DNA of 32,000 nucleotides from assembly GCA_031316235.1 (NCBI GenBank), contig JALDRA010000001.1:570001-602000 (forward strand), written 5' to 3'. The translations under genes were made by a program, and so were the position numbers. Under the pieces are notes generated by a model, which saw nothing but the letters and a program-made list of their open reading frames with translations, was not told the origin of the DNA and made no database searches. The DNA comes from Candidatus Scalindua sp. GTDB taxonomy: Bacteria; Planctomycetota; Brocadiia; Brocadiales; Scalinduaceae. Below are positions 6,368 to 31,411 of this stretch, piece after piece (within the stretch, counting starts at the first letter, position 1; every line of letters begins with the position of its first letter).

Positions 6368-6485
6368 TATATACTCATCTCATAATGGTTTTCGGATAAA
6401 ATCCGAGATAAAATTGAGCGAGTATACCTTCACCAAGATTTGGTTTCCGATAAAACCGAAAATCAAATCGGTTTTAGTATATATA
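6368..6485. repeat. Composite palindromic REP/MITE-like element, copy A (two sub-units)
   Basis: tatatactcatctcataatggttttcggataaaatccgagataaaattgagcgagtatac + cttcaccaagatttggtttccgataaaaccgaaaatcaaatcggttttagtatatata. The ends are inverted (tatatact...agtatata). The right half recurs at 13676..13726. Both ends recur, joined, in reverse orientation at 20577..20636. The element lies between the convergent stops at 6355 (+) and 6515 (-). Confidence 0.8.
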
Positions 6486-8383: not shown

Positions 8384-10414
8384 TTAAAAAATTGTATTTC
8401 CAACCATCTCTTTCTCTTTTTTAATACCAAATTCTGCTAAAATAGTGGGTGCAATATCATAAAGAGCAGGATCCTCTTTCCTTATCTTTCGGTTTGATAG
8501 TATAATTCCCGGGACTAGACTATTGTCCCCCAGATGTGTACCACTCCATTCCTTCATGTTGTCTCCCAGAAGTTCGTTAGGAACTTTACCTAAAGCCGTT
8601 TCCCATGATGCACGGTAACCGCGATTATAACCTATAACAAGGTCAGGTGCATCATTTCTGTATTTACCAGAATATATATCCTCTTTTTTGTAAGCCTTTT
8701 TAATGATTAAATATCCGTTTGTTGGGTCTCGCTCAACCTCAAGTTTTCTGATAATCTCTTCCAACAGCATCTCCCTCTCATTTCCTTCCAAAACGATACC
8801 AGTCCCTTCTCTCCCTTTAGTATTAATATAAATTCCATTAAAGCCAAGTGCATACGCTTTCGTTCTATTAAAATCCACATTCTCAAAAAATTCGCCGCTT
8901 TCACCTTTATATTCATGGATAAAATTAAGATATCCATTCCTTTTCAACCATGTATTCATATTAAAGTATCTACGAAAAGAGCCAAATCCGTGATCTGAAA
9001 GTACCATAATAGTAGTTTTATCTTTAATGTGGTTCATTGCCTTTCCTAAAATCCTGTCCATATCCTTATAGGTGTTTCTGATGACATGAGAATATTTCGA
9101 TGCCTCCTGAAAACTATATGCAGGATGATGCTCGTCTATGTTTCTCCAAAACATATGTTGAATTGGATCTGTCGTAGAGAAATAAACAAATAAGAGGCCT
9201 GAGTGAAATCTCCTCAATTCCATATCAAGCATCTTAACCCTTTGCTCTTTTATAAATCCAGATAGTTCCAAAAAGTTATCTTTGTGAAGATATCCCTGTT
9301 CCAATGCTTTAGTATCTTCAGGCATCCCCTGAGTGTAAAAGAGTCCAACCTCCTTGGCAACTTCAGAAGCATAGGACTTCGGTGTGCTAATATCAACAGT
9401 GGGGCTAAATGGATCAATATTAATAGGACTCACATAAAGTTCAAAATCAGGTCTCACACTCACCAAAAAAAGTCGGCATATTCCAGTTACCGTTTGAAAG
9501 GGAGCAAGTTTAAAATTAACATTCACCCAGTCACTCCACTCACCTTCATTCAAAAGAATCTCGTTTTTCCCTATCCTGATCAGAGCTACATGATTCTCCG
9601 GATCGCGCTTGATATCCACTCCTACTCTTACTCTTGATTGAGTAGTTTTAAAGGGATTTATCGGTCCCATCAACTCGGTTTTGGTGGTATCATTCAAAAA
9701 CTTTACGTTTAAAACTTTACCACTCGTAATTTCTTGCTCATTCTCTATCTCTTTAGTCGTATAAAAACTGAAGGTTCCGTACGACCCCAGTATGTCCGGC
9801 GTACCCATGCCAGACAATGTCCTCGATTTGGCTTTAACCGGTGGAAAATTCGCCGGAATCTTTATAACTGTTGAAGGAATTCCTTCAGCCTCAAGAATTT
9901 CCCAGAAAGCTTTTCCTTTTCTCAACAGTAAGGTTTCTGCCCTGGAGAATGGAATTAACCAATCTCCCAATTTAATTGTTCTCTTTGCATCGAATGTCTT
10001 TGAAGTAGAGAGGTAAGGGAGATAGGTTTTGGGCTCTCTCGCAATGAAATCAAAGATACCATGACCCCCTGGATCCATACCCGTAATTAAATTTGACCAT
10101 GCCACAGGACTTTGAGGAGGCATAGATGTGACAAGCTCCATAAAATCTCCCCTTTCCTGAAGGAGTTTAAAATTGGGCATAATTCCCTCCCCCATATATC
10201 TCCTTAACAACACCGGATCCATTCCGTCGAAACCTAAAACGAGAACTTTTTTGGTTGCCAGATCTGAGCCAGCACCACCTACCGTCGATGTGAGAAGTAT
10301 GAAAAAACCAGTGAGAAAAAACAGACTTTTCAATACAAAAAAATTTTTTTTAACCCTATCCAATTTCTCTGTCCGTATGATATTCAACCACCTGATTAGA
10401 GTCCTGAAATGCAT
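8384..10414 (-). CDS. Membrane-anchored alkaline-phosphatase-superfamily enzyme (type I phosphodiesterase/NPP-like), paralog 1
   Basis: N-terminal signal-anchor helix (FFVLKSLFFLTGFFILLTS). LVLGFDGMDP metal-site motif. MPPQSPVAWSNLITGMDPGGHGIFDF. VLSDHGF. C-terminal GTHLGDNSLVPGI and DIAPTILAEFGI. Collinear with 10468..12603 along its full length. Confidence 0.8.
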   Translation of the reverse strand: MHFRTLIRWLNIIRTEKLDRVKKNFFVLKSLFFLTGFFILLTSTVGGAGSDLATKKVLVLGFDGMDPVLLRRYMGEGIMPNFKLLQERGDFMELVTSMPPQSPVAWSNLITGMDPGGHGIFDFIAREPKTYLPYLSTSKTFDAKRTIKLGDWLIPFSRAETLLLRKGKAFWEILEAEGIPSTVIKIPANFPPVKAKSRTLSGMGTPDILGSYGTFSFYTTKEIENEQEITSGKVLNVKFLNDTTKTELMGPINPFKTTQSRVRVGVDIKRDPENHVALIRIGKNEILLNEGEWSDWVNVNFKLAPFQTVTGICRLFLVSVRPDFELYVSPINIDPFSPTVDISTPKSYASEVAKEVGLFYTQGMPEDTKALEQGYLHKDNFLELSGFIKEQRVKMLDMELRRFHSGLLFVYFSTTDPIQHMFWRNIDEHHPAYSFQEASKYSHVIRNTYKDMDRILGKAMNHIKDKTTIMVLSDHGFGSFRRYFNMNTWLKRNGYLNFIHEYKGESGEFFENVDFNRTKAYALGFNGIYINTKGREGTGIVLEGNEREMLLEEIIRKLEVERDPTNGYLIIKKAYKKEDIYSGKYRNDAPDLVIGYNRGYRASWETALGKVPNELLGDNMKEWSGTHLGDNSLVPGIILSNRKIRKEDPALYDIAPTILAEFGIKKEKEMVGNTIF

Positions 10415-10467
10415 TTTATTTTTTTTTACCCCCTCTAGAAAAACAACGATAGATGTGAGTTTAATGT

Positions 10468-12603
10468 TTAATTTATTAAAGACTTACCGTTCATATAGGA
10501 AGGAGGTTCTATTCCAAACAAATCCAGTATTGTAGGCGCCATATCGATAATATGAGGTTTATCAGATATAATTTTTTTATTACAATAGAACACTCCTGGT
10601 ACTATTTGTGGGTCCATACAATGATCTCCACTCCAGCTTTTTTTATTATCTGCAAAAACTTCTTCCTCCACTTTACCTAAAGCTGCGCCCCATGATGCCC
10701 TGTAACCCTCATTATAACCAATAATCAAGTCCGGTCCATTTTCTCTATAAGGCCCATCAAAACACTCTGTGCTGTTATAGACCTTTTTTATCGCAGTCTC
10801 CTTTTTCCCCTCATCAATTAATCCCTGCAATTTCTTTATTAACTCCTTCTTGAGTCCTTCTTTATCTTCAGGTAATACAATTCCTTTTGACTCTCTACCC
10901 GTCTGATTTATATAAATACCACTCAACCCAAAAGTGTATGCCTTTGTTTTTTTCCAATCTATATCCTGAAACCATTCTCTTCCCGTTTTTCTTCTGTTTC
11001 TCAGGGTTAGATAGCCATTTTTATAAAGCCAGGTGTTGAGATTTACGCCCCGACTAAACAGCTTGAACCCATGGTCGGAAAGAACTATGAGGACATCTTT
11101 CTCCTTAATTTTTTCCATCACCTGACCAATGAGACTATCCATCCTCATATAGAGTTTTTCTATAACATCCCTATATTTCTCTCTATCCACTCCATTATCA
11201 AGAGCAGGATGATTTTCTGACATAAAACGCATAAACATATGTTGAATTCTATCAGTTGTATCAAAAACGCATACACATAAGCCCTCTCTTGTTTTATCCA
11301 GGGCATCAAAAAACATCTTTTCTCTCTCTTGGTGATTTTGATAGGCTTGATCTAAAAAAACATCTTCATCAATAACTCGTTCGTTGAGAGCCCAAGTATC
11401 TTCAGCCAATCCCAGAGTTGCGTAACTTCCATTCATCTTGGCAAGGTAAATAGAATAGGATAAAGGAAAAGAGATAGGAAGCGAAGGTTTCTCTGGATCA
11501 ATATGTATAGGAGTCATATACATTTCAAATTTTGGATGAATTTGCTTAACAAAAAAACGGCAGATACCACAGATTTTCATGGCTGGCCCGCAACGAAACG
11601 ATAATTTAATCCATTTCGAATAGGTCCTTTTCTTTAGCATAAATTTTTCTTTAGCAATTTTTAATACAACTATTTCATTCCCACTTAGAGTAATTTCTAA
11701 TGGTATCCGCAATTCTTCGTTATCTTTTGACAAATTATTATTTGGTCCCGGTATATATGTTTTTATTTTATTGCCTTCTAAACTAACTGAAACCTGTATC
11801 CCTCCGATTCGCTTGCTTGCCTTTCTATTATTTGAGGTATAAATAGTAAATGTTCCCTGTGTCCCTTTTAAATCAGGCACACACATCCCTGAAAGCAGTA
11901 CCCCTTTCAATTTTTCTGGAGGAAAGGTAATAGGGATTCTAATAACAGAGCTGAAAATTCCGTATTCTCCCAGAATATTCCAGAAGGGCTTACTCTTTCG
12001 CAATAACTTGACTCTGGGTTTACCTCGTAAAAGTGAAAAGCTTCCTAACGAAAAAGTTTTGGAATTTTTTTCAATCTTAGTTGATGATAATTCCGGGAGG
12101 TACGTATTGAGGTCTCGGTTCAGGAAATCAAAGATATTGTGTCTGGACGGATCAACTCCTGTAATAAATGTTGACCATGCTACAGGCGATATTGATGGAA
12201 GAGTTGTTTGCAATTTCTGGTAGGTCCCAGAGCTGCTCAGTTTTAAAAGATTTGGAAGCTTTCCTTCTTTCATATACCTGGCTGCCAAATCAGGATCCAT
12301 CCCATCTAATCCGACAATGACTACACGTTTAATACCATGTTTAGCACTATTTGACTTTTTCCTTGTTACAAAAACCTTGACAATGAGTCGTAGAGGCCAG
12401 AAAAATATGGTTAATATGGCAAGAAAAATGGTGATGAAAAAAATGAAAAAGGAAGAGACAAATGCAAAGCCGGCTCCAGGTCCAATATATGCTTCAGCAA
12501 CACTCTCATGAAGGAACATTATACTTATTACAATAAACAAAAACCTTATCATTTTTGTTTGGACTAAAACAATTCGTTGTTTCCTTACACCTCTGTTTCG
12601 CAT
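10468..12603 (-). CDS. Membrane-anchored alkaline-phosphatase-superfamily enzyme (NPP-like), paralog 2
   Basis: VIVGLDGMDP, LPSISPVAWSTFITGVDPSRHNIFDF, VLSDHGF, SGDHCMDPQIVPGV, DMAPTILDLFGI. The N-terminus has a hydrophobic hairpin containing AYIGPGAGFAFVSSFFIFF that paralog 1 lacks. The true start may be the internal M at MIRFLFIV. Confidence 0.8.
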   Translation of the reverse strand: MRNRGVRKQRIVLVQTKMIRFLFIVISIMFLHESVAEAYIGPGAGFAFVSSFFIFFITIFLAILTIFFWPLRLIVKVFVTRKKSNSAKHGIKRVVIVGLDGMDPDLAARYMKEGKLPNLLKLSSSGTYQKLQTTLPSISPVAWSTFITGVDPSRHNIFDFLNRDLNTYLPELSSTKIEKNSKTFSLGSFSLLRGKPRVKLLRKSKPFWNILGEYGIFSSVIRIPITFPPEKLKGVLLSGMCVPDLKGTQGTFTIYTSNNRKASKRIGGIQVSVSLEGNKIKTYIPGPNNNLSKDNEELRIPLEITLSGNEIVVLKIAKEKFMLKKRTYSKWIKLSFRCGPAMKICGICRFFVKQIHPKFEMYMTPIHIDPEKPSLPISFPLSYSIYLAKMNGSYATLGLAEDTWALNERVIDEDVFLDQAYQNHQEREKMFFDALDKTREGLCVCVFDTTDRIQHMFMRFMSENHPALDNGVDREKYRDVIEKLYMRMDSLIGQVMEKIKEKDVLIVLSDHGFKLFSRGVNLNTWLYKNGYLTLRNRRKTGREWFQDIDWKKTKAYTFGLSGIYINQTGRESKGIVLPEDKEGLKKELIKKLQGLIDEGKKETAIKKVYNSTECFDGPYRENGPDLIIGYNEGYRASWGAALGKVEEEVFADNKKSWSGDHCMDPQIVPGVFYCNKKIISDKPHIIDMAPTILDLFGIEPPSYMNGKSLIN

Positions 12604-12683
12604 AGCTCTTTTTGCTGATCATCTGCGAAACAGTGATGGTTAAGAAAAGATTTCACTCTATTTAATGATTATGGACACCGTAT

Positions 12684-13460
12684 TTATGAAACTTTAGGTG
12701 GTTCTACCTGCCCATAACGTTTTGAAGTTATTGATTTGAAGAGAAACTTTTTCCCCCCACTTTTAGAGATTTTCATATCTCGTACTAACCGGAGGTAACC
12801 TCTCATAACTTGTAGTAATGATGGGAATGAGACAGCCTTTGAAAGCCCTTTCCTTACTCCCAGACGATAGGGAACCTCCGCAAAAAGATAACTCTTCTTT
12901 AACAACCTGATTAAAATATCCGTCTGGTAAAAAAATCCGGAACTCCTATTGTTAACGTCGCCTAATATAGCTTTCCGGTAAAGAACTGTTCCGTTTGTAT
13001 AATTTAAATTTACATTAAAAGTAGCATTAATGATAAAACGATATACATATGATAATAGATTCCTAAAAAAAGGGCGTACCTCTTTATTGAACACGAAAGG
13101 TACTACGATATCCACATGCTCTAACAGATCAAAATAACGTAACGTCTCCCAAGGGTCATTCTCATTATCTCCAGGAAACATTGATACAACCTCTTTTGTT
13201 GATTGATCAACTCCATCCCAGAATGAATTACCTACTCCATGGGGAACTGTATGATTAACGAGCTTAACACGATCATCATTTTTGATTATTTCGTTCACGA
13301 TATCTTTAGTTTTGTCGGTACTCCCATCGTTAATGACCACAATTTCTCCATTAATGCTGAGATTCTCAAAGGCTTTTAATGTATTGGTAACAGCTTCATG
13401 AATATTCTCCTCCTCATTCAACGCCGGCATTATGATAGATATACCAAATTTGTGGCTCAT
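12684..13460 (-). CDS. Family-2 glycosyltransferase (polyprenyl-phosphate sugar synthase-like, DPM1/CsbB/GtrB-type catalytic domain)
   Basis: The track ORF runs to 13646, but the GT-A fold starts at MSHKFGISIIMPALNEEENI. That ATG (13460) is preceded by aaggggagaacgctt (SD). Motifs: VVINDGSTDKT, MFPGDNENDP. I see no C-terminal TM helix. Confidence 0.8.
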   Translation of the reverse strand: MSHKFGISIIMPALNEEENIHEAVTNTLKAFENLSINGEIVVINDGSTDKTKDIVNEIIKNDDRVKLVNHTVPHGVGNSFWDGVDQSTKEVVSMFPGDNENDPWETLRYFDLLEHVDIVVPFVFNKEVRPFFRNLLSYVYRFIINATFNVNLNYTNGTVLYRKAILGDVNNRSSGFFYQTDILIRLLKKSYLFAEVPYRLGVRKGLSKAVSFPSLLQVMRGYLRLVRDMKISKSGGKKFLFKSITSKRYGQVEPPKVS

Positions 13461-13675
13461 AAGCGTTCTCCCCTTTTTAAAATTAACAAAACAAAATTGG
13501 CAATTTACAAGCGGTCCAAAATTCCCTGGACGGTAAAACCGCTGTTTGAGTTTGCAATGTGAGTATACCCTTCCTGAGGAAGGATTTAGGATGCATCGAG
13601 CAAACGAAAGACGGCTAACAATGACGAAACTGTCATAAGCTAACACATGTAGTATCTGAATGCAAATAGAAATTA

Positions 13676-13726
13676 ACCAAGATTTGGTTACCGGTAAAAC
13701 CGAAAACCAAATCGGTTTTAGTATAT
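13676..13726. repeat. REP/MITE-like element, copy B (hairpin half)
   Basis: accaagatttggttaccggtaaaaccgaaaaccaaatcggttttagtatat. The arms gatttggttaccgg / ccgaaaaccaaatc form a ~14-bp imperfect stem with a 5-nt loop. It sits 11 nt past the stop (13738) of the 918-aa YfhO-like gene. Confidence 0.8.
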
Positions 13727-13737
13727 CAAGTTAGCTT

Positions 13738-16494
13738 TCAACAAATAGCTATTACATTCTGAGATTGGAGTATCTGACTACGTTCGGACAAGAAATACAT
13801 TGCAACCCCTCCAATAACAAATGAGATAAATGCCACATAATAAATAGAGAGCGCTATTTTGAACAATAGAGGATTATAAACAAACCTAATCTCATTTTCT
13901 TCCTTCGGCAGGGGTATCGCCTTGAAATTACCATTTGCCCTATAAACAGGAGTCTCACTTCCGTTAACATAAGCACGCCACCATTTATCATATCCATCAG
14001 CCCAATACAGAATTCCTGTTTTGTTTGTTGTGGTCTTTAGAGAGATTGAGTTGTTACCGTACTGCTCAATAGTATAAGAAAAGTCCTCTTTCCCTCCTTC
14101 AGAAACAACGCCGGACTCTTCCTCAATATCTTCAACATCTCTTATCGTTACACTTGACTTATCTAAGTTCTGGTTGTACATCTGACTATCAACTAAGACA
14201 TAATTTTCTAACAACTGAAGAGATTTAATAGGTCCCATTTTGTTGAGAAAATCATAGCTATTCTCTTTATCAACGAGCACTACTCCTTTTTTGAACTGAA
14301 AAACAGGTTTGCCCACCGCAAAGATCGATTCCAAAGTTGACGGAGAGATTTCCGAATTGATAAGCTCAAAATATTCTCTAAACAGGTAAATACTGTTCCA
14401 ACGCTTATTCACTAAAGCATCTTCAAACTTATCAATTATGGTGGCCTCATCAATCATCGGAGAGAAAACAGAATGTTGTCGTACTAAAAGGGAAGTATAC
14501 CTCATTCCCTGACTGGTATTGCCATATATAGTTGGAGGAGTCAATAATCTCTTTTCCGGAAAAATAAGGTCACTGGGTGTTGTATTTACCTCAAAAACCA
14601 AGCCTGGATGTTTTTGACTATGATATAATGTCTCTGATTTACAAAAAGTGTAAATCAAATCGCCTGTTAAACTGAAAACAAAAATACAGAGCAGTATAAC
14701 TATCGAATATGCTTTTGTGCTTTTAGAGAAATATTGTCTGGTTTTGATAAAAAAAAAGATACCGACAGGGATTATAAATGCAAGAAGAACATGACAAATA
14801 AATTCCATTCTGTTCTCAGTCAAAAAAAGAACAAGACTTATGTGGCTTACTATCAAACTAAGGTATTGCCATTTTGTTTTCTGGCACTTATAAAAAATAC
14901 CAGCAAGCACAACAACAACTAAAGTGAGTACAATTAAATAAAGTGTAGAAAGAAATGCAGGTTCTGTGTACCAATAAACAGTGATTGGTACACAGAAACA
15001 AAACAAAAGAAAAGCGATAGCATTACGGTAATCTCTATTTTCCCAGAAAGGTGCTTTATGAGTAATTACTAAGTTGTCTCCGCTATACTCTTCGATAACA
15101 GATCGGTCGTGAGAGCCTCCAACATCTGATGGATAGTTTCTTTTTCTTGCCAATGAACGATTCGGAACACATCCTTTTGCATCTTCAGAGAAAACATATC
15201 CTCTCCAGGTTAAAAAGATATGATTGAGGCCTAAAACAAAAAAAAAGATCAAAGAGAACGTGAAGAACAATACTAACGGTGAGGTATGCCTGACAAACCT
15301 CATAGGTGGATATGCATAATAGAGTAGCATATGTATCCCCCCTGGTGGCCCCAACATCAACAATCCGAATCCAATAAGCACAAACAACCATACCTTCTTA
15401 AGAGCATGCTTACCTACTACCATCCCCAAGATGGCAATAGCCCATGGTAAAAGGCCGAGATACATAAATGCTTCTGAGGAGTTTCCCCAGCTTTTCCTCC
15501 CTGACCAGGGAATGTGTTTGTTCCCATCTGGAGCTATAATCTGGATAAAATCCCACATAGTTGCAAATGATCCGGTTTTGGTAATAGCATTGTATGACAT
15601 GTTAATTCCCTCAACCAAATTTTCAGGTTTTCCTTCGTACTGGAGATATGCTGCATGAGGTGCCCCGTTTCTACTGTCAACCAATTTCATCATTCTTGCT
15701 GGAAATATGAACCTTTCCTTCTCCAGCATAAGGACAATATTCGGTGCCATCATTACAAGCACAATGATAGTAGATACAGTAAATTTTGGGATCAAGCCTT
15801 TACTTTTAACTAAATCTTTTAAACAATCTCTGTGAAAAAAAACAACTCCCAAAGCGAAAAACAGGAAAAATATCCATGTGCCGGTAAAAAAATAGGATTG
15901 CCAGTTAAGGCCAATGAAACCTGATAATAGTAACCAAGAATACCATCTATAATCTCGATAATAAACAATGCGCAGCAGAAAATAGGTAATATATGGAACC
16001 CACATGAACTGATTAATAATGCCCTCTTGGTGAAAGGGGGCTAGCATGAAAGAAGAGAAGAGAAGAATAGGTATCAGAGACAACCTGATAAACAGATGTT
16101 TTGTCCAGGGTCGATATACTATATACACTCCTATCGCCATTAAAATCATTTTAATGAAGTGATTCCAGACATACATCATGACAAGATCGCTCGTAACAAA
16201 TTTCATTACATAGATCAAGACAAGAGAAATTGGTTCATAAAGTCTTACCTGGGCAAGGAGAGGATAAAACGGTTCTCCTCCGTGCGTGTATGGGTTCCAG
16301 AAAGGAAACTCCCCATTGAGTACGCTCTCTTCAAAAAATTGGGAAATTGGATAGGTCCAATAAAAACCATCATGCATTAATGTGGTTTCTCCAAAAATCA
16401 ACATCGAACGTAAGAGAAATATGAGAATCGCAATTCCAGATATTCCCGCACCAACTTCAATAATAAAGGAATTACGTCTTTTCTTTTTTGTCAT
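13738..16494 (-). CDS. YfhO-like polytopic membrane glycosyltransferase (GT-C-like)
   Basis: 918 aa with an ATG start. N-terminal HDGFYWTYP...NGEFPFWNPYTHGGEPFY, then many TM helices. The C-terminal extracytoplasmic domain ends in the YfhO-typical ILYWADGYDKWWRAYVNGSETPVYRANGNFKAIPLPKEENEIRFVYNP plus a final TM helix. Confidence 0.8.
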   Translation of the reverse strand: MTKKKRRNSFIIEVGAGISGIAILIFLLRSMLIFGETTLMHDGFYWTYPISQFFEESVLNGEFPFWNPYTHGGEPFYPLLAQVRLYEPISLVLIYVMKFVTSDLVMMYVWNHFIKMILMAIGVYIVYRPWTKHLFIRLSLIPILLFSSFMLAPFHQEGIINQFMWVPYITYFLLRIVYYRDYRWYSWLLLSGFIGLNWQSYFFTGTWIFFLFFALGVVFFHRDCLKDLVKSKGLIPKFTVSTIIVLVMMAPNIVLMLEKERFIFPARMMKLVDSRNGAPHAAYLQYEGKPENLVEGINMSYNAITKTGSFATMWDFIQIIAPDGNKHIPWSGRKSWGNSSEAFMYLGLLPWAIAILGMVVGKHALKKVWLFVLIGFGLLMLGPPGGIHMLLYYAYPPMRFVRHTSPLVLFFTFSLIFFFVLGLNHIFLTWRGYVFSEDAKGCVPNRSLARKRNYPSDVGGSHDRSVIEEYSGDNLVITHKAPFWENRDYRNAIAFLLFCFCVPITVYWYTEPAFLSTLYLIVLTLVVVVLAGIFYKCQKTKWQYLSLIVSHISLVLFLTENRMEFICHVLLAFIIPVGIFFFIKTRQYFSKSTKAYSIVILLCIFVFSLTGDLIYTFCKSETLYHSQKHPGLVFEVNTTPSDLIFPEKRLLTPPTIYGNTSQGMRYTSLLVRQHSVFSPMIDEATIIDKFEDALVNKRWNSIYLFREYFELINSEISPSTLESIFAVGKPVFQFKKGVVLVDKENSYDFLNKMGPIKSLQLLENYVLVDSQMYNQNLDKSSVTIRDVEDIEEESGVVSEGGKEDFSYTIEQYGNNSISLKTTTNKTGILYWADGYDKWWRAYVNGSETPVYRANGNFKAIPLPKEENEIRFVYNPLLFKIALSIYYVAFISFVIGGVAMYFLSERSQILQSQNVIAIC

Positions 16495-16528
16495 ATCTCA
16501 CTTTTCATAACATTCAAAATCAAGTTAG

Positions 16529-19393
16529 TTATTTCAGTAACAGGTTCAAGTTTTTCTCGTTGTGTGCGCTCTTTTGTCTCCAATCTGCGTTACTCCACAC
16601 AACAAGATCGGCAATTTCTCCCTCGAAATACCTATCATTTGCCAATGACTGTTTACCAATAGAAAGCGGAATTGATCCGAAATTAAAAGGATCTGTCTTA
16701 TTCTCCCCTGCTAATGCACCATTAAGAAAGACCTTCATCTCCCCATGTTCAGCATCAATTATTAAGAGAACATGGCTCCATTTGTTCAGCTTGAGCTTGA
16801 AGGGTATTGGAATTCCATTACAGACAAAGACCCAGTCTTCTCTTGCTAGATTTCTGGGATCAGCAGACTGCAAAACAAAATTTTGAGTAGCGGTATGTCC
16901 ATTATCAAGAATTGTCGAAAGCCCATCATTTTCCTTTTCACCTGGTTTTACCCGTAAGGAAATCACAACACCTTCCCATTGCCGAAAGTTAATGTGAGGA
17001 CGGGCGAAGGAACTCCTACCATTAAAACTGAATGTTTCCCCATATTCACCATCAAATGTTTGAAGATCCAGAAACAGATCATTCTCCCGTCCCTTGTTTA
17101 AGAATTCTGTTTCCAGTTTCCAGGTCGCAAGCGATTCCTTCGATTTTATCGTATTGTATATTTTCTCAGGAGTACTTGTCCATACGATGTTGGGCATGCT
17201 CTCAGGTTTAAAAAGAGCATACGTGAGATAAAAACCTCCAAAGATGAATACGGGAATAAAGAAAACAATTAATGATTCAGAAGAGTGTGAAACAACTCTT
17301 CTCCATAATCGACTTGCCTGAAATGCAACCGTAACTAAGAAAAATATGATCACCCCGGCTATACCGGAAAAATAGAACCACAAAGAGAGGAGGTACTTTC
17401 CTGGTTTAAAAACAAACTCAACCGTATGATCCCCTCTGCTTAAGAACACCGCTTTCTGATTATAATTTGCCTGAAACACTTTTTCTTTCACACCGTCTAC
17501 AATACATTTCCAGGCTGGATGATAACCGTCTCTGAAAAGGAGAAATCCTTCACCAGAAACCTTCACGTTCAGCTCTATGTCGTGGGGTTTATAGCTGGTT
17601 ACTTCACAAGACCATTCAGGAGCAACTCTTTGCTCATATTTTTTTTTTGGTACATCTCCTTTTTCGTGAATGATAATCGAATGCTCCAATGCTTCCAAAA
17701 GTATCTCATCACTCTTTCCATTTAAAATTTCATCACTGGGCAAGTACATATATTCAGGAAAAAAAGAAAAAACTGGAAGATTTACTCCAAGCAGGACTTC
17801 CTTGAGATCTTGTGATGCCTCTGAGGCAAGGATTTGGTAGTATAGGATAGGATAAGTAATCGAGGTTGGAGGCAACCTCTGGATTAATTCATAGTCATCA
17901 TTATCTTCAAAATCCGTTGCAACAGGAGATTTTAAGACCAAGGAACTATAATTCATATTGAAGCTATGAGGATCGCCCTGATAAAGCGGCGGTACAGATT
18001 TGATTCTACTTTTAATATGAAAAGTAGAATCTGTTTCAAAATTGGAAAATTTATCAGGATCAGTTATTTTCTTTAAACACGCTAGGGTTTTATCACTATA
18101 TATTTGATAATCATAGATAGTTAATTCAATAAGTGTAAAGATAAACAGGATGGGAACAATCCATGCACGCCCTGTTTTTTGTATGATAAGCTGAAGACCC
18201 AGAAGGAAAAAGAAAAAATAAGAAAACAGAAAATAACTCGCAAATAAAGAAGTATTCTCAACTACTCTTAAGAGAGGGAACAGAATGAACAATATTTGAT
18301 AAAGATAATTGTATTTTACAGGACCGATGAAGAGAACGACGCTGAGTATTAACAAAACAATAAATACTTTCTTATACGAATGTTTCCCCAAAATGATCCC
18401 TATCAAACCTGTCAGAAAGGGAATTGCAGAGATGTACATATTCATTTCTGACAGTTTGAAGACGTTCTGAAAAACTGATCCCGAATAGATCTGTCTTGCC
18501 AAAGGAAAAAATCCAAGCGAGAGTATATCTCCGATTTTTCCTCTGGAGCCTAATCCTTCCACAAGATTGTTAAAACCCAGGAGGATTTGTGTTTCTCCTG
18601 TACGAGAAAAAAGCATGCGAGAATAGCTGTAAAAATCATTTGTATAAAATATTAAACTCCATGCCGGGGATGAAAAGATCAGAAATAAAAGAGACGTGCA
18701 CACAATTTTCAGCTTATTATTGAGAAGCACCCTGAATTTGTCGCGATTAAAGAGTAGAAATGTTACGGCAAAGAGAAAGAGAAAAGTACCTATGTAACCA
18801 AAAGGTTGACCCTGAGCAGAAATTCCCGAAAAGAATCCGAGAAATACAACGTTGAACCAGTCACTTCGATCAAGAAAACGCAAAAAAAAGTATAAGGTAA
18901 AAGGAAAATAATGGAAGGCGATATAACCTGTTTGGTGGTAACCACTAACAGTAAATGAAGATAAAAGTACAACAAAGAAAAGGAAATAAGAATATCTCCT
19001 TAATTCCGGGAAAACCCTGTTAAAAAACAGGAGAATACCGAAAGCAATTGTGAATGTTCTGAAGAAGACGTAAAGCTCATACTGGTAAAACAGGTTATTT
19101 ATGTGAAGCAGCCTGCCAAAGTATGCACAAAAGATAGTGATAGGATCAATAAGTGATAATTGGCTTAAGAGTTGGAAAAATATTTCACCGGCATGAGAGT
19201 AGGGATTCCACAAAGGGACAAAACCATTATAAAGCGACTCTATACAATAATGATAGAGAGGGTGCCAGTAAAAGGCGTCATGCCCAAAGACAAACTGTTT
19301 GGATATTATTGGCCAAACTGAAAAAAACCATGTGATAAGACCGACGGCAAACCATGTCAGCCAATGGGAAATAATTATTTTATAGCTTTTCAT
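16529..19393 (-). CDS. YfhO-like membrane glycosyltransferase fused to a C-terminal LamG/concanavalin-A-like lectin domain
   Basis: 954 aa with an ATG start. HDAFYWHPLYHY...NGFVPLWNPYSHAGEIFF. The YfhO-type end module is FLLFRDGYHPAWKCIVDGVKEKVFQANYNQKAVFLSRGDHTVEFVFKP plus a TM helix. An extra TM helix and ~226 aa follow, containing WSHVLLIIDAEHGEMKVFLNGALAG...RYFEGEIADLVVWSNA (LamG-type F-x-G-x-I-D-x-V pattern). Confidence 0.8.
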   Translation of the reverse strand: MKSYKIIISHWLTWFAVGLITWFFSVWPIISKQFVFGHDAFYWHPLYHYCIESLYNGFVPLWNPYSHAGEIFFQLLSQLSLIDPITIFCAYFGRLLHINNLFYQYELYVFFRTFTIAFGILLFFNRVFPELRRYSYFLFFVVLLSSFTVSGYHQTGYIAFHYFPFTLYFFLRFLDRSDWFNVVFLGFFSGISAQGQPFGYIGTFLFLFAVTFLLFNRDKFRVLLNNKLKIVCTSLLFLIFSSPAWSLIFYTNDFYSYSRMLFSRTGETQILLGFNNLVEGLGSRGKIGDILSLGFFPLARQIYSGSVFQNVFKLSEMNMYISAIPFLTGLIGIILGKHSYKKVFIVLLILSVVLFIGPVKYNYLYQILFILFPLLRVVENTSLFASYFLFSYFFFFLLGLQLIIQKTGRAWIVPILFIFTLIELTIYDYQIYSDKTLACLKKITDPDKFSNFETDSTFHIKSRIKSVPPLYQGDPHSFNMNYSSLVLKSPVATDFEDNDDYELIQRLPPTSITYPILYYQILASEASQDLKEVLLGVNLPVFSFFPEYMYLPSDEILNGKSDEILLEALEHSIIIHEKGDVPKKKYEQRVAPEWSCEVTSYKPHDIELNVKVSGEGFLLFRDGYHPAWKCIVDGVKEKVFQANYNQKAVFLSRGDHTVEFVFKPGKYLLSLWFYFSGIAGVIIFFLVTVAFQASRLWRRVVSHSSESLIVFFIPVFIFGGFYLTYALFKPESMPNIVWTSTPEKIYNTIKSKESLATWKLETEFLNKGRENDLFLDLQTFDGEYGETFSFNGRSSFARPHINFRQWEGVVISLRVKPGEKENDGLSTILDNGHTATQNFVLQSADPRNLAREDWVFVCNGIPIPFKLKLNKWSHVLLIIDAEHGEMKVFLNGALAGENKTDPFNFGSIPLSIGKQSLANDRYFEGEIADLVVWSNADWRQKSAHNEKNLNLLLK

Positions 19394-19415: not shown

Positions 19416-20348
19416 TCATTCAGTTTCTCCTTTTTGCGCAACAAGAACCATTTCGTTAGTTGGAGACTTAATGCTTAAATCAGGGAATAGTTTGTAAATT
19501 AAACTGGATAACGGTTTCACAGAGGACAAAAATGGGAGATTTGACAATACTTGAAAAATCTCAAAAACATAATAATGACTAAAATACGACTGGTTAATCA
19601 ACGTCTTAAAACCCATTCTCTTAAGCAGAACTGGTAGATTATGATGATTAAAATAATAAAAATGTTCCGGAGGTTTGATTAAATAAAAAGGAATTGATGA
19701 TTTTGTATCCAAGGTCGTTATCATGAGTAGACCTTCAGGTTTTAAGATTCTATTGATTTCAACAAGCATCTCTCTCGGATTAATTACATGCTCAATGGTT
19801 CCAAGAAGGAAAACAATATCGAAATAGTTATTCTCGAAATGAAACTGGTCATGTTTTTCCTGAAAGAAGATGTTCTTCAGCCCTAGATTTTCAGTCGCAT
19901 ACTGTATTGCCCACTCACTAAATTCTACACCATAAACATCACACTTCTTCAACTTTTTTATCTCATCAATATAAAACCCGCATGCACAACCAATGTCTAG
20001 GACCCGTAAAAAATCAATCTTTTTTACTTTACTGATAATATCAATATTGTTTCTGGAATTTTTTCGATAGTTCTTTTCATTGCCAACATAATTTTTGAAT
20101 CCAGTCCTTTTTACATAAAAATTTGTATAATAGTTGCTGCTATAAAATGACTTCAATTTTTTCTCATTGATAGCATCCCCTACCCAGATCAATTTGCATG
20201 TTTTACATTTATACACGGAGAAACCATGTACTTTTTTAAAAAAGAAGATCTTTCCAGAGTTACATACATAACACTGGGTTATTCTTTCTTTATTATCAAT
20301 AAGATGAGAATAATCGGTATTTTCAGATTCCTTGGTCATGCAATACAC
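19416..20348 (-). CDS. Class I SAM-dependent methyltransferase with an N-terminal Cys4 zinc ribbon
   Basis: The longest ORF starts at GTG 20348. ATG 20339 (MTKESEN...) is the likely start. The ribbon is CYVCNSGK...YKCKTCKLIW. Motif I is VLDIGCACGFY. Also present: FDIVFLLGTIEHV and LKPEGLLMITT. Confidence 0.8.
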   Translation of the reverse strand: MYCMTKESENTDYSHLIDNKERITQCYVCNSGKIFFFKKVHGFSVYKCKTCKLIWVGDAINEKKLKSFYSSNYYTNFYVKRTGFKNYVGNEKNYRKNSRNNIDIISKVKKIDFLRVLDIGCACGFYIDEIKKLKKCDVYGVEFSEWAIQYATENLGLKNIFFQEKHDQFHFENNYFDIVFLLGTIEHVINPREMLVEINRILKPEGLLMITTLDTKSSIPFYLIKPPEHFYYFNHHNLPVLLKRMGFKTLINQSYFSHYYVFEIFQVLSNLPFLSSVKPLSSLIYKLFPDLSIKSPTNEMVLVAQKGETE

Positions 20349-20576
20349 CTGAACGTGAAACTCAGTGAAAACGGGAATTCTTTCATGGGAAACGAAAGTC
20401 TAGTTTGCATTTGGATTGGATTTACGTATAGAAAATTTAGCAAACGGTATTACATCCTCATAACACTGTTTATAGTGCCATGAGATCATCAGGTATCCAT
20501 TATCGCTAAAAAATAATTGTGGAAGAGTTCAGATGATAAAGGGTGCATACGGGGCCTCAGAAAAACCTGTCCATTC

Positions 20577-20636
20577 TATATACTAAAACCGATTTGGTTT
20601 TCGGTTTTACCGGAAACCAATATGAGATGAGTATAC
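20577..20636. repeat. REP/MITE-like element, copy C (60 bp, inverted orientation)
   Basis: tatatactaaaaccgatttggttttcggttttaccggaaaccaatatgagatgagtatac. Its reverse complement joins the left end of copy A (gtatactcatctcata) to the right half of copy A (ggtttccggtaaaaccgaaaaccaaatcggttttagtatata). It lies in the 328-bp gap between the two zinc-ribbon methyltransferase genes. Confidence 0.8.
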
Positions 20637-20676
20637 AATAAAAGAACCACAATCAGGTTTTAACAGATTGTGGCAA

Positions 20677-21630
20677 CTATTCCTTTTTAGCATGAACATT
20701 TAGGGAATCAAAGGAATTAGTAATCCACATATAAAATAATAACGGTGAAGCGATGATTCTACTGACAATGTCAGCAAAGTAAATTTTAGCATACCCGGTG
20801 GAAACCATAGATTTTGAGAGGGTGCCAATTCTTTGCCTGCAAGCAACTGCAAAAAATGTTCGGACAATATCTGCCGGGAGTGCACCTGCAGTTGAAACAA
20901 TCTCGGTACGAACCGAGCAATTTTCAAAACCCGCTTTCTTTAACATATACGTCATCGACTGTTTCGTAAAATAGTGAATATGACTTGGGGGAAGAATCCA
21001 GTACCATCTTTCTTTTGACAGACTCCCAAAAAAACCTTTATAATTTGGAACAGAAAGAAAGACCTCGCCTCCTTTTACTATGTTTTTATAGATTTTCGAT
21101 ACTATTTTGAGAGGATCTTTACAATGCTCCAAAGAATGGTAGCAATAGACAAAGTCAAAAGGCGCGTTAGGATACTCCTCCATTTCTCCTGCATCTCCAG
21201 CATAAAGATTTATTCCCAACCTTTTTCTTCCTTCATCAACTATTTGTTGTGAAATATCTATCCCTGTGAGGTTTGTGAATTCGTAAAAGTCTCTCAAAAG
21301 GGCCAAAAAACATCCTGGCCCGCTACCGACTTCTAAGAATTTCAATGAACTGCTTTGTAATGACTTAAATTTAAAAATCTGTTTCAGGCGGCGTAGATAA
21401 AACTGATGAAAAGTATCTTTTCCTCCCAGATAATCTTCGATATTCCTAAAGGCATTTGCATTGCCAATGGTATCGCTCTGTTGAGAATAGTACTTGTGGA
21501 TATCCTCATCTGATGGGATCGGGTACAACTGCCGATGGGAACAGGTCCCACAGCGATATATATCGTACCCATCATACGAAAGTTCTCTTTCCTCAAGATC
21601 ACCTTCACAAACTGAACACTCTCTTTTCAC
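20677..21630 (-). CDS. Class I SAM-dependent methyltransferase with an N-terminal Cys4 zinc ribbon (paralogous architecture to 19416..20348)
   Basis: The GTG start at 21630 overlaps the upstream stop (GTGA, 4-nt overlap). No alternative ATG lies before the ribbon CSVCEG...YRCGTCSH. Motif I is FLEVGSGPGCF. Also present: FDFVYCYHSLEHC and VKGGEVFLSVPN. Confidence 0.8.
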   Translation of the reverse strand: MKRECSVCEGDLEERELSYDGYDIYRCGTCSHRQLYPIPSDEDIHKYYSQQSDTIGNANAFRNIEDYLGGKDTFHQFYLRRLKQIFKFKSLQSSSLKFLEVGSGPGCFLALLRDFYEFTNLTGIDISQQIVDEGRKRLGINLYAGDAGEMEEYPNAPFDFVYCYHSLEHCKDPLKIVSKIYKNIVKGGEVFLSVPNYKGFFGSLSKERWYWILPPSHIHYFTKQSMTYMLKKAGFENCSVRTEIVSTAGALPADIVRTFFAVACRQRIGTLSKSMVSTGYAKIYFADIVSRIIASPLLFYMWITNSFDSLNVHAKKE

Positions 21631-22670
21631 TGTATCAATTCTCTATATTTAACAGGGTTTACGGGAAAGGAAGATGATGGTTTAAGAATTTTCTCCTGAT
21701 ACTCCTTATCCCATGATACCACGCATCTTGGATACTTTCTATTTTTATGGTAATACGAGCATTCGTTGTGGATGAATCTCCAGATATCTTCCAGTGGTTC
21801 TTTCCTGATATTACCAAAAGAGATCGGGTTAATAGCACATGTTTGAACATCTCCGTAAGGAGAAATACATAATTTTTCAGTACCTCCAGGACAGCCAACG
21901 CCTTTAAAGGTATGGCTGAAGTCAGTTCTCAATACATTGAAATTTTTCCTGAGTATTTCCCATTCCTCTTCACCTAAACATTCATCATACACCTCTTTAC
22001 CGCGTCCGGTGGGGCTATACGTTGAACATCCCAATAAAATCCCTTTCGATCGGGTAAAAGCAAGCATTCTTTCAAACATCTTCATTGATGATTTGCACAG
22101 AGTAAAAGAAATCTCCACGATTATATTGTGCTTCTCACATAACTCTATTACCTTTAAGGTTCGTTCAAATGATCCTTTTCCCCTTATTTTATCATTTTCT
22201 TTCTCGTTATCGGCATCCAGGCTTATACACATATTGAAAAGCTTCACCCTGGACAGATCTTTGATTAATTTTTCATTTACATTAACGCCGTTTGTAACAA
22301 TAGAAATCAAATATTTTTCCGGTTCAAATACAGAAATAATATCGAATAAATCCCCGCGCAATGTAGGTTCTCCACCAATTATATGAACTCCAAAAGCACC
22401 CAGTTTCTTTGCCTGTCTCCAAAGGTCTCTATATTCCTCAACACTCATAATCTTCTCATTAGGCTGAATATACTTGGAAGCATAGCATACTTCACAGGAA
22501 ATATTACAGTGCGGAGTAATATTCAACTCAAGAGAACGGAGAAATGGTTTATTCAAAAGCCCCCTCATTACATAGCCGCGAAAAACACCGTATAAGCTTC
22601 TGGGCTTTTTTGCAAAACGTGGAAGGAGTAATAGTTTCTGCTTAATATTATTGTCTTTTAAAAAATTCAT
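21627..22670 (-). CDS. Radical SAM enzyme with a SPASM/twitch-type C-terminal Cys-rich domain
   Basis: ATG start. The rSAM cluster is ITPHCNISCEVCYA. GGEPTLR is present. The C-terminal region GVGCPGGTEKLCISPYGDVQTCAINP...YPRCV fits the SPASM pattern C-x-G-G-...-I-x-P-x-G-D-V-x-x-C. Confidence 0.8.
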   Translation of the reverse strand: MNFLKDNNIKQKLLLLPRFAKKPRSLYGVFRGYVMRGLLNKPFLRSLELNITPHCNISCEVCYASKYIQPNEKIMSVEEYRDLWRQAKKLGAFGVHIIGGEPTLRGDLFDIISVFEPEKYLISIVTNGVNVNEKLIKDLSRVKLFNMCISLDADNEKENDKIRGKGSFERTLKVIELCEKHNIIVEISFTLCKSSMKMFERMLAFTRSKGILLGCSTYSPTGRGKEVYDECLGEEEWEILRKNFNVLRTDFSHTFKGVGCPGGTEKLCISPYGDVQTCAINPISFGNIRKEPLEDIWRFIHNECSYYHKNRKYPRCVVSWDKEYQEKILKPSSSFPVNPVKYRELIQ

Positions 22671-22672
22671 TT

Positions 22673-23200
22673 TTATTCCGTTTCAGTTCGTTTTCCGAGA
22701 AGGAGCAGTTTCAACATAATAATCGTCTTTGCAATTAAGAGCATAAGGGGTTTCCCGATGTAGTATCTATCGTTCCGATACACAATTTGCCCCTTACTGA
22801 TCATCCGCTGAAGTCGGAGGTCAATAATGTTCGAGGCATTATAACGCTCAAGCAGATCCTCTATTGAAAGACCGTTCTGTGATTCAAAGAGCTCTCGGAC
22901 TATGCGGATACGCCTAGCAGTCTCTCCGAGATTAATAAAGTTAAAATAGCAGTAAGCCAATCCGACATAGGCAATCAAGTTTACGACTATCTGACACACC
23001 ATTTCCAGGGTGGATACACTTCTGGAGGTAAAATAGGCAACCTCTATGAGAAATAAACCTGAAAGACCGCAGAGAAATCCGACAATAACAGACTTGAACA
23101 ATCCACACTTTGCAATATATCTACAGACAAAAAGCTGAGAAATACTGTTTAATAATAACCCCAATAGAGGAGAAATGATATGAAGAAGAAATATGACCAC
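22673..23200 (-). CDS. Small membrane protein of unknown family (3 N-terminal TM helices + soluble module + C-terminal hydrophobic helix), paralog of 23208..23792
   Basis: GTG start at 23200 with GGGAGGA ~10 nt upstream. It lies 7 nt after the upstream stop and ends 2 nt before the rSAM/SPASM start. The soluble part RRIRIVRELFESQNGLSIEDLLERYNASNIIDLRLQRMISKGQIVYRNDRYYIGKP looks winged-helix-like. Confidence 0.6.
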   Translation of the reverse strand: MVIFLLHIISPLLGLLLNSISQLFVCRYIAKCGLFKSVIVGFLCGLSGLFLIEVAYFTSRSVSTLEMVCQIVVNLIAYVGLAYCYFNFINLGETARRIRIVRELFESQNGLSIEDLLERYNASNIIDLRLQRMISKGQIVYRNDRYYIGKPLMLLIAKTIIMLKLLLLGKRTETE

Positions 23201-23207
23201 GAACGGA

Positions 23208-23792: not shown

Positions 23793-23843
23793 CTCTCCGA
23801 GTAATCGTAATTATATCTTTACAATAGTAGAAGCTAACAATCA

Positions 23844-24635: not shown

Positions 24636-24716
24636 ATTTTACTGTAATTTTCCTCAACCGTTACCTCAAAAATTATCTAGTAAATTCCTTTTGTTTCAGA
24701 ACATTTACCATCGCAT

Positions 24717-25793: not shown

Positions 25794-25872
25794 AATTGAT
25801 ATCCTCTCTACAAGTAGTTTATACGTTTAAATATGGTACATAAACAACCCTCAATATTGGCAAATTAATTCA

Positions 25873-26646: not shown

Positions 26647-26748
26647 TCACTATTCCCCTTAATATGTGCTACAACCGTATATTATATAGAATCACTTTCT
26701 GTAAAAACTTCACCATTTAGAAAAGTAATAACATTTCCCTTATCATCT

Positions 26749-27654: not shown

Positions 27655-27665
27655 TTATTTTTTCC

Positions 27666-28475: not shown

Positions 28476-28529
28476 TTTTTCTCAATCTTTTCTTGTCAAT
28501 CGAGTTAGTGCCCCCAGCACAACTCTTTC

Positions 28530-28573
28530 AAAATGGCTACAACTACTTCCCTGTAGTTGCTTCACGCCATTTT
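28530..28573. other. Nested hairpin inside the 317-bp gap between the rSAM and transketolase genes
   Basis: The outer stem is aaaatggc (28530..28537) / gccatttt (28566..28573). The inner stem is caactac (28540..28546) / gtagttg (28553..28559) with loop ttccct. On the minus strand the structure ends in TTTT, so it could terminate or attenuate read-through from 28793..29860. Confidence 0.35.
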
Positions 28574-29860: not shown

Positions 29861-29861
29861 C

Positions 29862-31409: not shown

Positions 31410-31411
31410 AC

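Follow-up and report, generated by a model that had tools for sequence, protein, structure and literature searches.

Genes and features of the locus

The sequence under study is a 32,000-nt stretch of the genome of the anammox planctomycete Candidatus Scalindua sp. (GenBank assembly GCA_031316235.1, contig JALDRA010000001.1, positions 570,001 to 602,000), referred to below as the window. An 11-kb region within it encodes a family 2 glycosyltransferase (GT2), two YfhO-like membrane proteins of the GT-C glycosyltransferase type and two paralogous enzymes of the alkaline phosphatase (AP) superfamily (Table 1). In the original prediction, made from the sequence alone, these five genes were joined into one system for a phosphodiester-containing surface polymer. 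The region is probably a juxtaposition of two independent modules, namely a GT2/YfhO glycosylation system (module A) and an autonomous AP cassette (module B). All five genes were recovered by Pfam searches and open reading frame (ORF) checks with the positions, sizes, domain families and order given in that prediction. They lie on the minus strand, which carries every gene across positions 6515-31888.

Window proteins were screened with Pfam, NCBIfam and PADLOC and by sequence and profile searches of the PDB. Structural models were built with AlphaFold and compared using Foldseek. Homologous comparison loci from other genomes and metagenomes are designated by L-numbers.

Table 1. Position, strand and assignment of features in the 32,000-nt window (TM, transmembrane).
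Feature	Position	Strand	Family or match	Module
YfhO-like GT-C paralog, 954 aa; two additional TM helices and, at the C-terminus, a LamG/ConA-like domain predicted to be periplasmic	16529..19393	-		A
YfhO-family GT-C-type membrane protein, 918 aa	13738..16494	-	PF09586	A
Palindromic hairpin repeat copy, directly 3' of the 918-aa gene stop	13681..13713
GT2 glycosyltransferase, 258 aa, predicted DPM1/GtrB/ArnC polyprenyl-phosphate sugar synthase type	12684..13460	-	PF00535	A
AP-superfamily enzyme, 711 aa	10468..12603	-	PF01663	B
AP-superfamily paralog, 676 aa, one N-terminal hydrophobic segment	8384..10414	-	PF01663	B
Soluble protein without signal peptide, 63 aa	8151..8342	-		B
EMC3/TMCO1/DUF106-like membrane protein, 276 aa	7243..8073	-		B
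Small cytoplasmic sulfotransferase, 201 aa	6515..7120	-	Sulfotransfer_1, E 9e-9	B, frequent but optional companion
Second hairpin repeat copy, convergent junction past the sulfotransferase gene	6437..6469
Tat-signal (RRDFLK) sulfatase-fold protein, 551 aa	4700..6355	+	PF00884	B, companion
B12-binding radical-SAM enzyme, 503 aa	2506..4017	-		A, split off here by module B
Upstream gene block	19416..31888	-	Orthologous sets around YfhO-like genes elsewhere	A
Small membrane protein, 175 aa, in upstream block	22673..23200	-		A
PAP2-like membrane protein, 194 aa, in upstream block	23208..23792	-	PAP2_3 (weak)	A
Further hairpin repeat copy	20579..20635
Partial hairpin core	13531..13541
Separate F5/8 type C protein, 298 aa	1042..1938

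The GT2 and the YfhO-like proteins

The GT2 protein matched PF00535 (E 1.2e-18). The ATG at position 13460, which a GGGGAG ribosome-binding site precedes, was taken as its start; read mechanically from a GTG, the ORF measures 320 aa. The best solved relatives found by PDB sequence search, Pyrococcus DPMS (5MLZ, E 3.3e-10), GtrB (5EKP, 1.5e-7) and ArnC (5e-7), are all polyprenyl-phosphate glycosyltransferases, and partial NCBIfam matches included PgfS, ArnC, PpgS and AglJ. No hydrophobic segment or TM helix was found in the 258-aa protein, so that the C-terminal TM helices of GtrB and CsbB are missing. In this it resembles PpgS and human DPM1, which are TM-less members of the polyprenyl-phosphate sugar synthases. 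By its GT-A similarity, the protein is predicted to be such a synthase, of the DPM1/GtrB/CsbB/ArnC type. It is 63-64% identical to the GT2s located within YfhO/sugar clusters at L003, L005, L006, L097, L098 and L100.

The 918-aa protein passed the Pfam threshold for YfhO (PF09586, 40.7 bits; cut-off 28.5) and is 100% identical to a Candidatus Scalindua 'YfhO family protein' at NCBI. It contains about 13 TM segments followed by a periplasmic, beta-rich C-terminal domain. The pair His41-Asp42, kept in at least 90% of 43 homologs, is sited in the first external loop, which was placed outside because of the basic N-terminus and the position of TM1 (residues 10-28). The 954-aa protein has GHD at the matching position. 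Its own score against the YfhO family (16 bits) fell under the cut-off, and it is counted as YfhO-like only for its homology with the 918-aa protein (28% identity across 390 aa, E 1e-33). Laminin_G_3 was matched at its residues 863-936 (E 1.2e-10). Tandem YfhO-like genes are common. The appended carbohydrate-binding-type domain of the upstream paralog differs among close relatives, being LamG in the window and F5/8 type C at L091:6515-9991; an F5/8 type C domain on this paralog was also seen in several other homologs.

An AlphaFold (AF2) model of the 918-aa protein, built with the 43 homologs as input, reached a predicted local distance difference test (pLDDT) score of 84.4 and a predicted TM-score (pTM) of 0.87. 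In Foldseek its sole full-length PDB matches were GT-C enzymes, namely AglB, PglB, ArnT and human STT3. These matches are weak (E 0.018-0.55), the best TM-scores being 0.45-0.48 when normalised to ArnT, below 0.5. The Pfam match is confined to the last ~80 residues of the protein (model positions 756-834 of 835), and a profile of the YfhO-like family found no match among PDB sequences. Of the predicted YfhO/GT-C assignment, the Pfam family of the 918-aa protein and the conserved Asp in the first periplasmic loop were retained; the structural support was weak, and the 954-aa protein stayed below the family cut-off.

The terminal Pfam match, the weak Foldseek E-values and the empty profile search would also fit two polytopic envelope proteins of another kind (a polymerase, ligase or scaffold) that share only the C-terminal domain of YfhO and are not glycosyltransferases. 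This is decidedly unlikely, given that GT-C enzymes were the only full-length structural matches, that an acidic residue is conserved in external loop 1 and that the genes are steadily linked to a DPM1-type GT2 and to nucleotide-sugar genes. The structural matches to GT-C enzymes are supportive, not decisive, and the GT2 and YfhO-type proteins plausibly form a sugar-decoration pair of the CsbB/YfhO kind.

Upstream genes and recurrence of module A

Read 5' to 3' on the minus strand, the upstream block opens with an HldE-like nucleotidyltransferase, a nucleotidyltransferase-kinase, a radical-SAM (rSAM; SAM, S-adenosylmethionine)/SPASM enzyme, a split transketolase and a TylF-type methyltransferase. 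It continues with a second rSAM/SPASM enzyme, a SAM methyltransferase and the 194-aa and 175-aa membrane proteins, and ends with a third rSAM/SPASM enzyme and two SAM methyltransferases adjoining the 954-aa gene. HldE kinase and adenylyltransferase domains were matched by the upstream genes. The rSAM proteins are DesII/BlsE-like, and the SPASM enzymes are predicted to be of the sugar-modifying kind. Modification enzymes are unusually dense at this locus: the window encodes three rSAM/SPASM enzymes, one B12-binding rSAM (B12-rSAM) and five methyltransferases in total, and a minimum of two further methyltransferases are encoded past its end, in the upstream direction (L149:1-5916).

Two other roles were considered for these genes and rejected. 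TagD-like CDP-glycerol synthesis was considered for the 158-aa nucleotidyltransferase, which fits HldE domain II far better (6.8e-28 vs 5.4e-9). The rSAM/SPASM genes were considered as sulfatase maturases for the neighbouring 'sulfatase', the motif of which is Thr-x-Pro-Ser-His in place of Cys/Ser-x-Pro-x-Arg, and were found to travel with module A.

Around YfhO-like homologs of 44-47% identity at L003, L005 and L006, orthologs of eleven window genes were found, and no AP gene. Identity to the window proteins is 72% for the 158-aa nucleotidyltransferase, 62% for the nucleotidyltransferase-PfkB fusion, 69% for the 355-aa and 42% for the 358-aa rSAM/SPASM enzyme, about 36% for each transketolase half, 63% for the GT2, 44% for the PAP2-like 194-aa protein, 46% for the 175-aa membrane protein and 37% for the 503-aa B12-rSAM. 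The orthologous set recurs at L097, L098, L100 and L126. A profile survey of the YfhO-like family yielded 56 metagenome loci, with the B12-rSAM in 26, the PAP2-like protein in 13, the 175-aa protein in 11 and the GT2 in 7. The B12-rSAM (37-69% identical in those 26 loci, and present also at L003-L006) is thereby the steadiest neighbour of the YfhO-like gene elsewhere. Nothing relevant was found in the literature on YfhO in anammox bacteria.

As had been predicted, no GtrA/GtcA-like flippase was recognised by Pfam among the window ORFs tested. The 175-aa protein has about four hydrophobic segments, and the 194-aa protein matches PAP2_3 weakly. Both recur alongside YfhO-like genes of other phyla, where identity is 44-48%, and are candidate proteins for flipping or for a lipid-phosphate recycling step.

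The AP-superfamily paralogs

Both AP proteins belong to PF01663 (104.7 bits for the 711-aa and 114.8 bits for the 676-aa protein; cut-off 23) and are paralogs with 41% identity over 659 aa. The 711-aa protein has at least 8000 homologs, 54-57% identical across phyla. Across 28 sequences of both paralogs, D100, S139, D451/H455, D510/H511 and H661 are invariant, corresponding to the metal ligands and to the nucleophile position, Ser139; an internal N-x-W-L-x-x-N-G-Y-L motif is likewise invariant. With PF01663 membership and conserved metal ligands, and not PF00884, the assignment of NPP-type rather than LtaS-type catalytic domains was upheld. A phmmer search of the PDB with the 711-aa protein gave no match. 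The family profile gave marginal end-segment matches to iPGM, sulfatase, PhnA and NPP (best E ~4e-4), indicating no close solved relative, and neither LtaS nor EptA structures appeared in this profile search.

The two paralogs differ at their N-termini. The 711-aa gene likely starts at Met18 (position 12552). Its product has two hydrophobic segments, a signal-like helix and a TM helix; the invariant A-YIGPGAGFAF comes after the first and an R/K-rich stretch after the second. In all 120 homologs listed, Y[IVL]GPG[AS]G follows directly after a signal-peptide-like helix, with Ala at -1 in 110 and a small residue (Ala, Ser, Val, Thr, Cys) at -3 in 100. The 676-aa protein has a single hydrophobic segment and lacks the motif, in accordance with the prediction that this hairpin is found in the 711-aa protein and not in its sibling.

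In proteins of the 711-aa type, the 25 residues past the second hydrophobic helix contain on average 7.7 K/R against 0.7 D/E, and the 13-residue loop between the helices 0.1 K/R. By the positive-inside rule, the AP domain is therefore predicted to be cytoplasmic, whether or not the first helix is cleaved. Among 77 orthologs of the 676-aa type, 13 N-termini carry a twin-arginine translocation (Tat)-like RRxFLK, 36 a lipobox-like motif and 28 another hydrophobic segment. This type is predicted to be exported or periplasmic because its orthologs bear Tat, lipoprotein or Sec signals. On these predictions, the view that both catalytic domains face outward holds for the 676-aa enzyme and fails for the 711-aa enzyme.

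The four-gene cassette and its companions

A context look-up for three homologs of the 711-aa protein returned the same four genes, encoding two AP enzymes of ~700 aa and ~670 aa and ORFs of 63 aa and ~276 aa, the last with no Pfam match. One genome per species was then retained, resulting in 80 loci that were searched by tblastn with every window protein. They span about ten phyla, including Acidobacteriota, Nitrospirota, Aminicenantes, Thermodesulfobacteriota/Deltaproteobacteria, Spirochaetes and Myxococcota, with further members in Omnitrophota, Binatia, Eiseniibacteriota, Methylococcaceae, Chitinophagaceae and Scalindua. Cassettes of this kind abound in phyla of soil and sediment, for example Acidobacteriota, Nitrospirota and Aminicenantes. 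The second AP protein was matched at all 80 loci (as a distinct gene in 77), the 63-aa and 276-aa proteins at 75 each and the sulfotransferase at 17. The four genes are intact in 75/80 genomes, the few incomplete cassettes being contig ends, and share one orientation throughout, arranged as 711-676-63-276 or 676-63-276-711. NCBIfam holds no family for the AP pair, the 63-aa and 276-aa proteins or the sulfotransferase, nor for the 175-aa and 194-aa proteins of module A. PADLOC defence-system models did not match any of the six module-B proteins. Literature searches on the cassette (DUF106 with alkaline phosphatase; pyrophosphatase with sulfotransferase and sulfatase) returned nothing relevant.

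Relatives of the 276-aa protein are named DUF106, and 18 of 36 family members match PF01956 (EMC3/TMCO1; best E 4.8e-8). At E <= 1e-3 the family comprises 3342 representative clusters. Its AF2 model (pLDDT 90.8) consists of long helices into which an Ig-like beta-sandwich is inserted, with a TM helix at the C-terminus; the helical core would be a divergent one of the EMC3/TMCO1/DUF106-like type. The EMC3/TMCO1/DUF106 lineage of the Oxa1 superfamily is mostly discussed for archaea and eukaryotes.

The 63-aa protein matched no Pfam, NCBIfam or PADLOC family. It ends in a tail, RLxGLGY(I/L)(E/S), present in 74 of 75 orthologs. In more general form the pattern is an acidic linker followed by (K/R)xLxxLGY(I/L/V)x, which only 3 of 599 unrelated ORFs contain. 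The same tail ends the 551-aa sulfatase-like protein of the window (LKSLGYL) and 11 of 86 sulfatase-like neighbours, and lies internally, just ahead of the TPR domain, in 74 of the 86. It was also found at L010:5694-6296, at L010:16885-18792 and at many of the loci L011-L090, its bearers including an APS (adenosine 5'-phosphosulfate) kinase and another PF01663 protein. The shared tail may serve as a docking or targeting peptide.

When the neighbours at 82 cassette loci were clustered, a sulfatase-fold family, often with TPR, occurred at 59 and a small sulfotransferase cluster at 14. At L010, ATP sulfurylase and APS kinase, which make up the synthesis of 3'-phosphoadenosine 5'-phosphosulfate (PAPS), adjoin the cassette. 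A strict search placed the motif in 24-26 neighbour sequences; these have Thr in the formylglycine position (T-x-P-S-H), and Cys/Ser-x-Pro-x-Arg occurred in none of them. The 551-aa protein of the window reads WTAPSH, with Thr at the nucleophile motif. Because Thr-x-Pro-Ser-His replaces Cys/Ser-x-Pro-x-Arg, these neighbours are not regarded as classical sulfatases, and the PF00884 proteins adjoining the cassette are, as judged from this motif, probably not true sulfatases. One metagenome relative (L007:3442-6214) has, close to its cassette, a divergent GT2 and a GT-C protein with PMT_2 and TPR domains on the opposite strand, together with two sulfatase-fold genes; this GT2 gave no tblastn match and is not an ortholog of the window GT2.

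That module B might be a phosphate-scavenging set, made up of a periplasmic phosphodiesterase or phosphatase and its helpers and without a role in building the envelope, is quite unlikely. PF01663 does include secreted nucleotide pyrophosphatases and phosphodiesterases, and one paralog is predicted to leave the cytoplasm via Tat or as a lipoprotein. Scavenging would, however, leave unexplained the strictly conserved paralog predicted at the cytoplasmic face, the EMC3/DUF106-like and 63-aa proteins, and the recurrent sulfotransferase, PAPS and sulfatase-like neighbours; moreover, no phosphate transporter or Pho genes were found among the recurrent neighbours of the cassette.

Independence of the two modules

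Neither the GT2 nor either YfhO-like protein was detected by tblastn within 10 kb at any of the 80 cassette loci, and the AP, 63-aa, 276-aa, sulfotransferase and sulfatase proteins were absent from all 56 YfhO-like metagenome loci. The co-conservation of GT2, YfhO and AP genes expected under the original prediction was therefore not seen. In another Scalindua (L015), the genes that flank the cassette on either side are different ones.

Two close relatives of the window differ in their content. At L092, with a 918-aa protein 82% identical to that of the window, the gene order is as in the window. At L091 (918-aa protein 76%, GT2 94.5% and B12-rSAM 93% identical), the AP block is missing from an otherwise collinear locus, which reads YfhO (1158 aa, F5/8 type C), YfhO (923 aa), GT2 (258 aa), a 70-aa ORF, a transposase fragment, B12-rSAM (503 aa) and an F5/8 type C protein. 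In the nucleotide alignment, the counterpart of window positions 4326-12391 is absent. The segment L091:14061-14565, corresponding to window positions ~12392-12603, contains the 70-aa ORF and an HTH_Tnp_1 transposase fragment. The ORF begins with the 53 codons that open the 711-aa gene (MIRFLF...AYIGPGAGFAF...FFWPL) and continues into unrelated sequence. This arrangement points to loss of the cassette, the sulfotransferase gene and the sulfatase-like gene at L091 by an insertion sequence (IS)-associated deletion of about 8 kb, and the 53-codon stump indicates that the adjacency of the modules is ancestral in this Scalindua sublineage.

The single-system reading, in which the GT2, the YfhO pair and the AP enzymes would together make a phosphodiester-containing surface polymer with NPP-type ectoenzymes in the place of LtaS, is highly improbable. 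The genes are indeed collinear and co-oriented in the window and at L092, AP-superfamily enzymes are able to catalyse phosphodiester transfer, and one AP paralog is predicted to be exported. Against this stand the complete lack of co-occurrence at the 80 and 56 loci of other organisms, the loss of the cassette at L091 with GT2, YfhO and B12-rSAM left intact, and the predicted cytoplasmic location of the 711-aa paralog. Two of the refuting conditions named with the original prediction, missing co-conservation and a cytoplasmic AP paralog by prediction, have thereby come about. The AP enzymes are furthermore PF01663 proteins with 1-2 TM segments, whereas LtaS is a PF00884 protein with five TM helices; the nucleotidyltransferases fit HldE-type models much better than TagD, and no CDP-glycerol or ribitol genes were identified.

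The hairpin between the 918-aa and GT2 genes is a 15+15-nt inverted repeat with a minimum free energy of -22.7 kcal/mol (z -3.84), folding better than 200/200 shuffles, and the repeat hairpin of the original prediction was thus confirmed, with extra copies. The copy past the sulfotransferase gene has 3 mismatches in 33 nt, where zero such copies are expected by chance. The core of this intergenic palindromic family is CGGTAAAACCG. The repeat may act as a terminator, an attenuator or an element of the repetitive extragenic palindromic (REP) type. Promoter and terminator consensus scans did not rise above shuffled expectation and thus define no transcription units. No tRNA genes were found in the window, and its base composition showed no clear shift that would mark an island.

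A coupling confined to this lineage, in which the Scalindua clade would have recruited a mobile AP/sulfotransferase cassette to sulfate, phosphorylate or trim the glycan assembled by YfhO, is unlikely. It would account for the position of the cassette, which in the window and at L092 is enclosed by GT2 and B12-rSAM of module A, for the ancestral arrangement betrayed by the L091 stump and for the hairpin copies that flank the genes from GT2 through sulfotransferase; sulfated or phosphorylated glycans would also require such enzymes. Yet module A is intact without the cassette at L091, the same four genes and their companions occur in phyla lacking module A, the cassette lies elsewhere in Scalindua L015, and neighbouring envelope loci are commonplace. 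With the adjacency in the window and at L092 and the ancestral stump, a lineage-specific functional link is conceivable, and nothing requires one.

Several observations weigh against the interpretation as two independent modules with the functions proposed below. In the window and at L092 the modules lie side by side in the same orientation, an adjacency that is ancestral in this sublineage. The hairpin copies enclose the block from GT2 to sulfotransferase, that is, the GT2 together with the AP cassette, so that the GT2 could be co-transcribed with module B in this genome. For the YfhO-like proteins, the fold matches, the terminal Pfam match and the empty PDB profile search described above count on the same side. 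The positive-inside rule is the sole basis for placing the 711-aa enzyme in the cytoplasm. Finally, the 276-aa copy of the window has no Pfam family match, and Foldseek returned Ig-like hits and no insertase for its model.

Comparison with known systems

As in CsbB/YfhO of B. subtilis, GtlA/GtlB of L. monocytogenes and GtrB/PgtC2 and PgfS/PgfM1/PgfM2 of streptococci, a GT2 akin to the polyprenyl-phosphate sugar synthases adjoins YfhO-family GT-C genes in the window, and the GT-C genes stand in tandem as do PgfM1/PgfM2. The predicted catalytic acidic residue is again located in the first external loop (PMC5836110, PMC12041528, PMC8035078). The window differs from these systems in that its GT2 lacks TM helices, its YfhO paralogs are of greater length, with LamG on one of them (F5/8 type C in a relative), no GtrA/GtcA flippase is recognised and the Pfam YfhO match is partial. 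The window genes lie, moreover, within a cluster of HldE-like genes, a split transketolase, four radical-SAM and at least five methyltransferase genes. To our knowledge, no teichoic acid is known from the planctomycete host.

Relative to ArnC/ArnT, DPMS/PMT and PglB/AglB, the GT2 has its best solved matches in DPMS, GtrB and ArnC and the 918-aa model in AglB, PglB and ArnT; identity is 8-12% and TM-scores are 0.2-0.48, and no solved GT-C enzyme was matched at the sequence level.

Both AP paralogs share the Pfam Phosphodiest match and the metal-ligand Asp/His residues with the NPP/PhnA/iPGM branch (PF01663, PF01676). They differ from it by about 300 additional residues with a large insertion (~190 residues) and by a Ser nucleophile where NPP has Thr, and the 711-aa paralog differs from the NPP branch as a membrane-tethered enzyme predicted to be cytoplasmic. 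With LtaS, EptA and OpgB (PF00884) they have the superfamily and the membrane site in common, but not the family or the five-helix membrane domain. The 551-aa protein does have PF00884 and the Thr nucleophile motif of LtaS/EptA/OpgB, but is a soluble Tat substrate and not a polytopic transferase. The 276-aa protein compares with Oxa1/YidC/EMC3 and archaeal DUF106, half of its relatives matching PF01956, and differs by its inserted Ig-like domain. The N-terminus of the 711-aa protein follows the layout of M13 procoat: a signal-like helix is joined by a very short acidic loop to a TM helix, which has a basic flank on the cytoplasmic side.

Proposed functions

Module A, which takes in the GT2, the YfhO pair, the B12-rSAM (2506-4017) and the upstream genes for sugar activation, radical-SAM enzymes and methyltransferases, would constitute a transmembrane glycosylation system. 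An unusual heptose-like sugar, probably methylated or C-modified, would first be activated to a nucleotide sugar. The soluble DPM1-type GT2 would then load it onto polyprenyl phosphate at the inner face of the membrane. Following flipping of the lipid-linked sugar, for which the 175-aa and 194-aa proteins are candidates, the two YfhO-type GT-C paralogs, one with a lectin-like LamG domain, would pass the sugar to acceptors outside the membrane. YfhO enzymes take sugars from undecaprenyl-phosphate donors and attach them to teichoic acids or Ser/Thr-rich proteins (PMC5836110, PMC12041528, PMC8035078), and the S-layer protein of Kuenenia carries heptose chains and glycans with methylated N-acetylhexosamine (HexNAc) and dimethyl-deoxyhexose (PMC5088730; bioRxiv 10.1101/2020.12.03.409086). 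Taken together with the HldE-like, rSAM and methyltransferase genes, these data favour the attachment of a modified sugar to a glycoprotein or glycan, the likeliest acceptor being one of the surface (S-layer).

In module B, a Ser-nucleophile phospho- or sulfo-esterase or transferase of the AP type would be tethered at the cytoplasmic face by its M13-procoat-like hairpin, while its paralog would be exported. The Oxa1-like 276-aa protein might insert, or be a partner of, the hairpin anchor, and the cassette would remodel phosphate or sulfate esters of an envelope component at both membrane faces. It is possible, as a tentative extension of this view, that module B constitutes an undescribed and very widespread envelope system, in which AP paralogs on opposite membrane faces, an insertase-like protein and an RLxGLGYI docking peptide would assemble into a machine for sulfo/phospho-ester remodelling.

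Anammox bacteria, which are uncultivable in pure culture, carry heavily methylated, heptose-containing surface glycans; we know of no transferase assigned to these glycans. Module A provides a concrete candidate for extracytoplasmic glycosylation in a planctomycete and would extend a system known mostly from work on Firmicutes. Setting the AP genes apart averts an erroneous annotation of 'teichoic acid in Planctomycetes', and exposes a highly conserved four-gene cassette with paralogs predicted on opposite faces of the membrane, an EMC3/DUF106-like protein of bacterial origin and a tail motif shared at the C-terminus.

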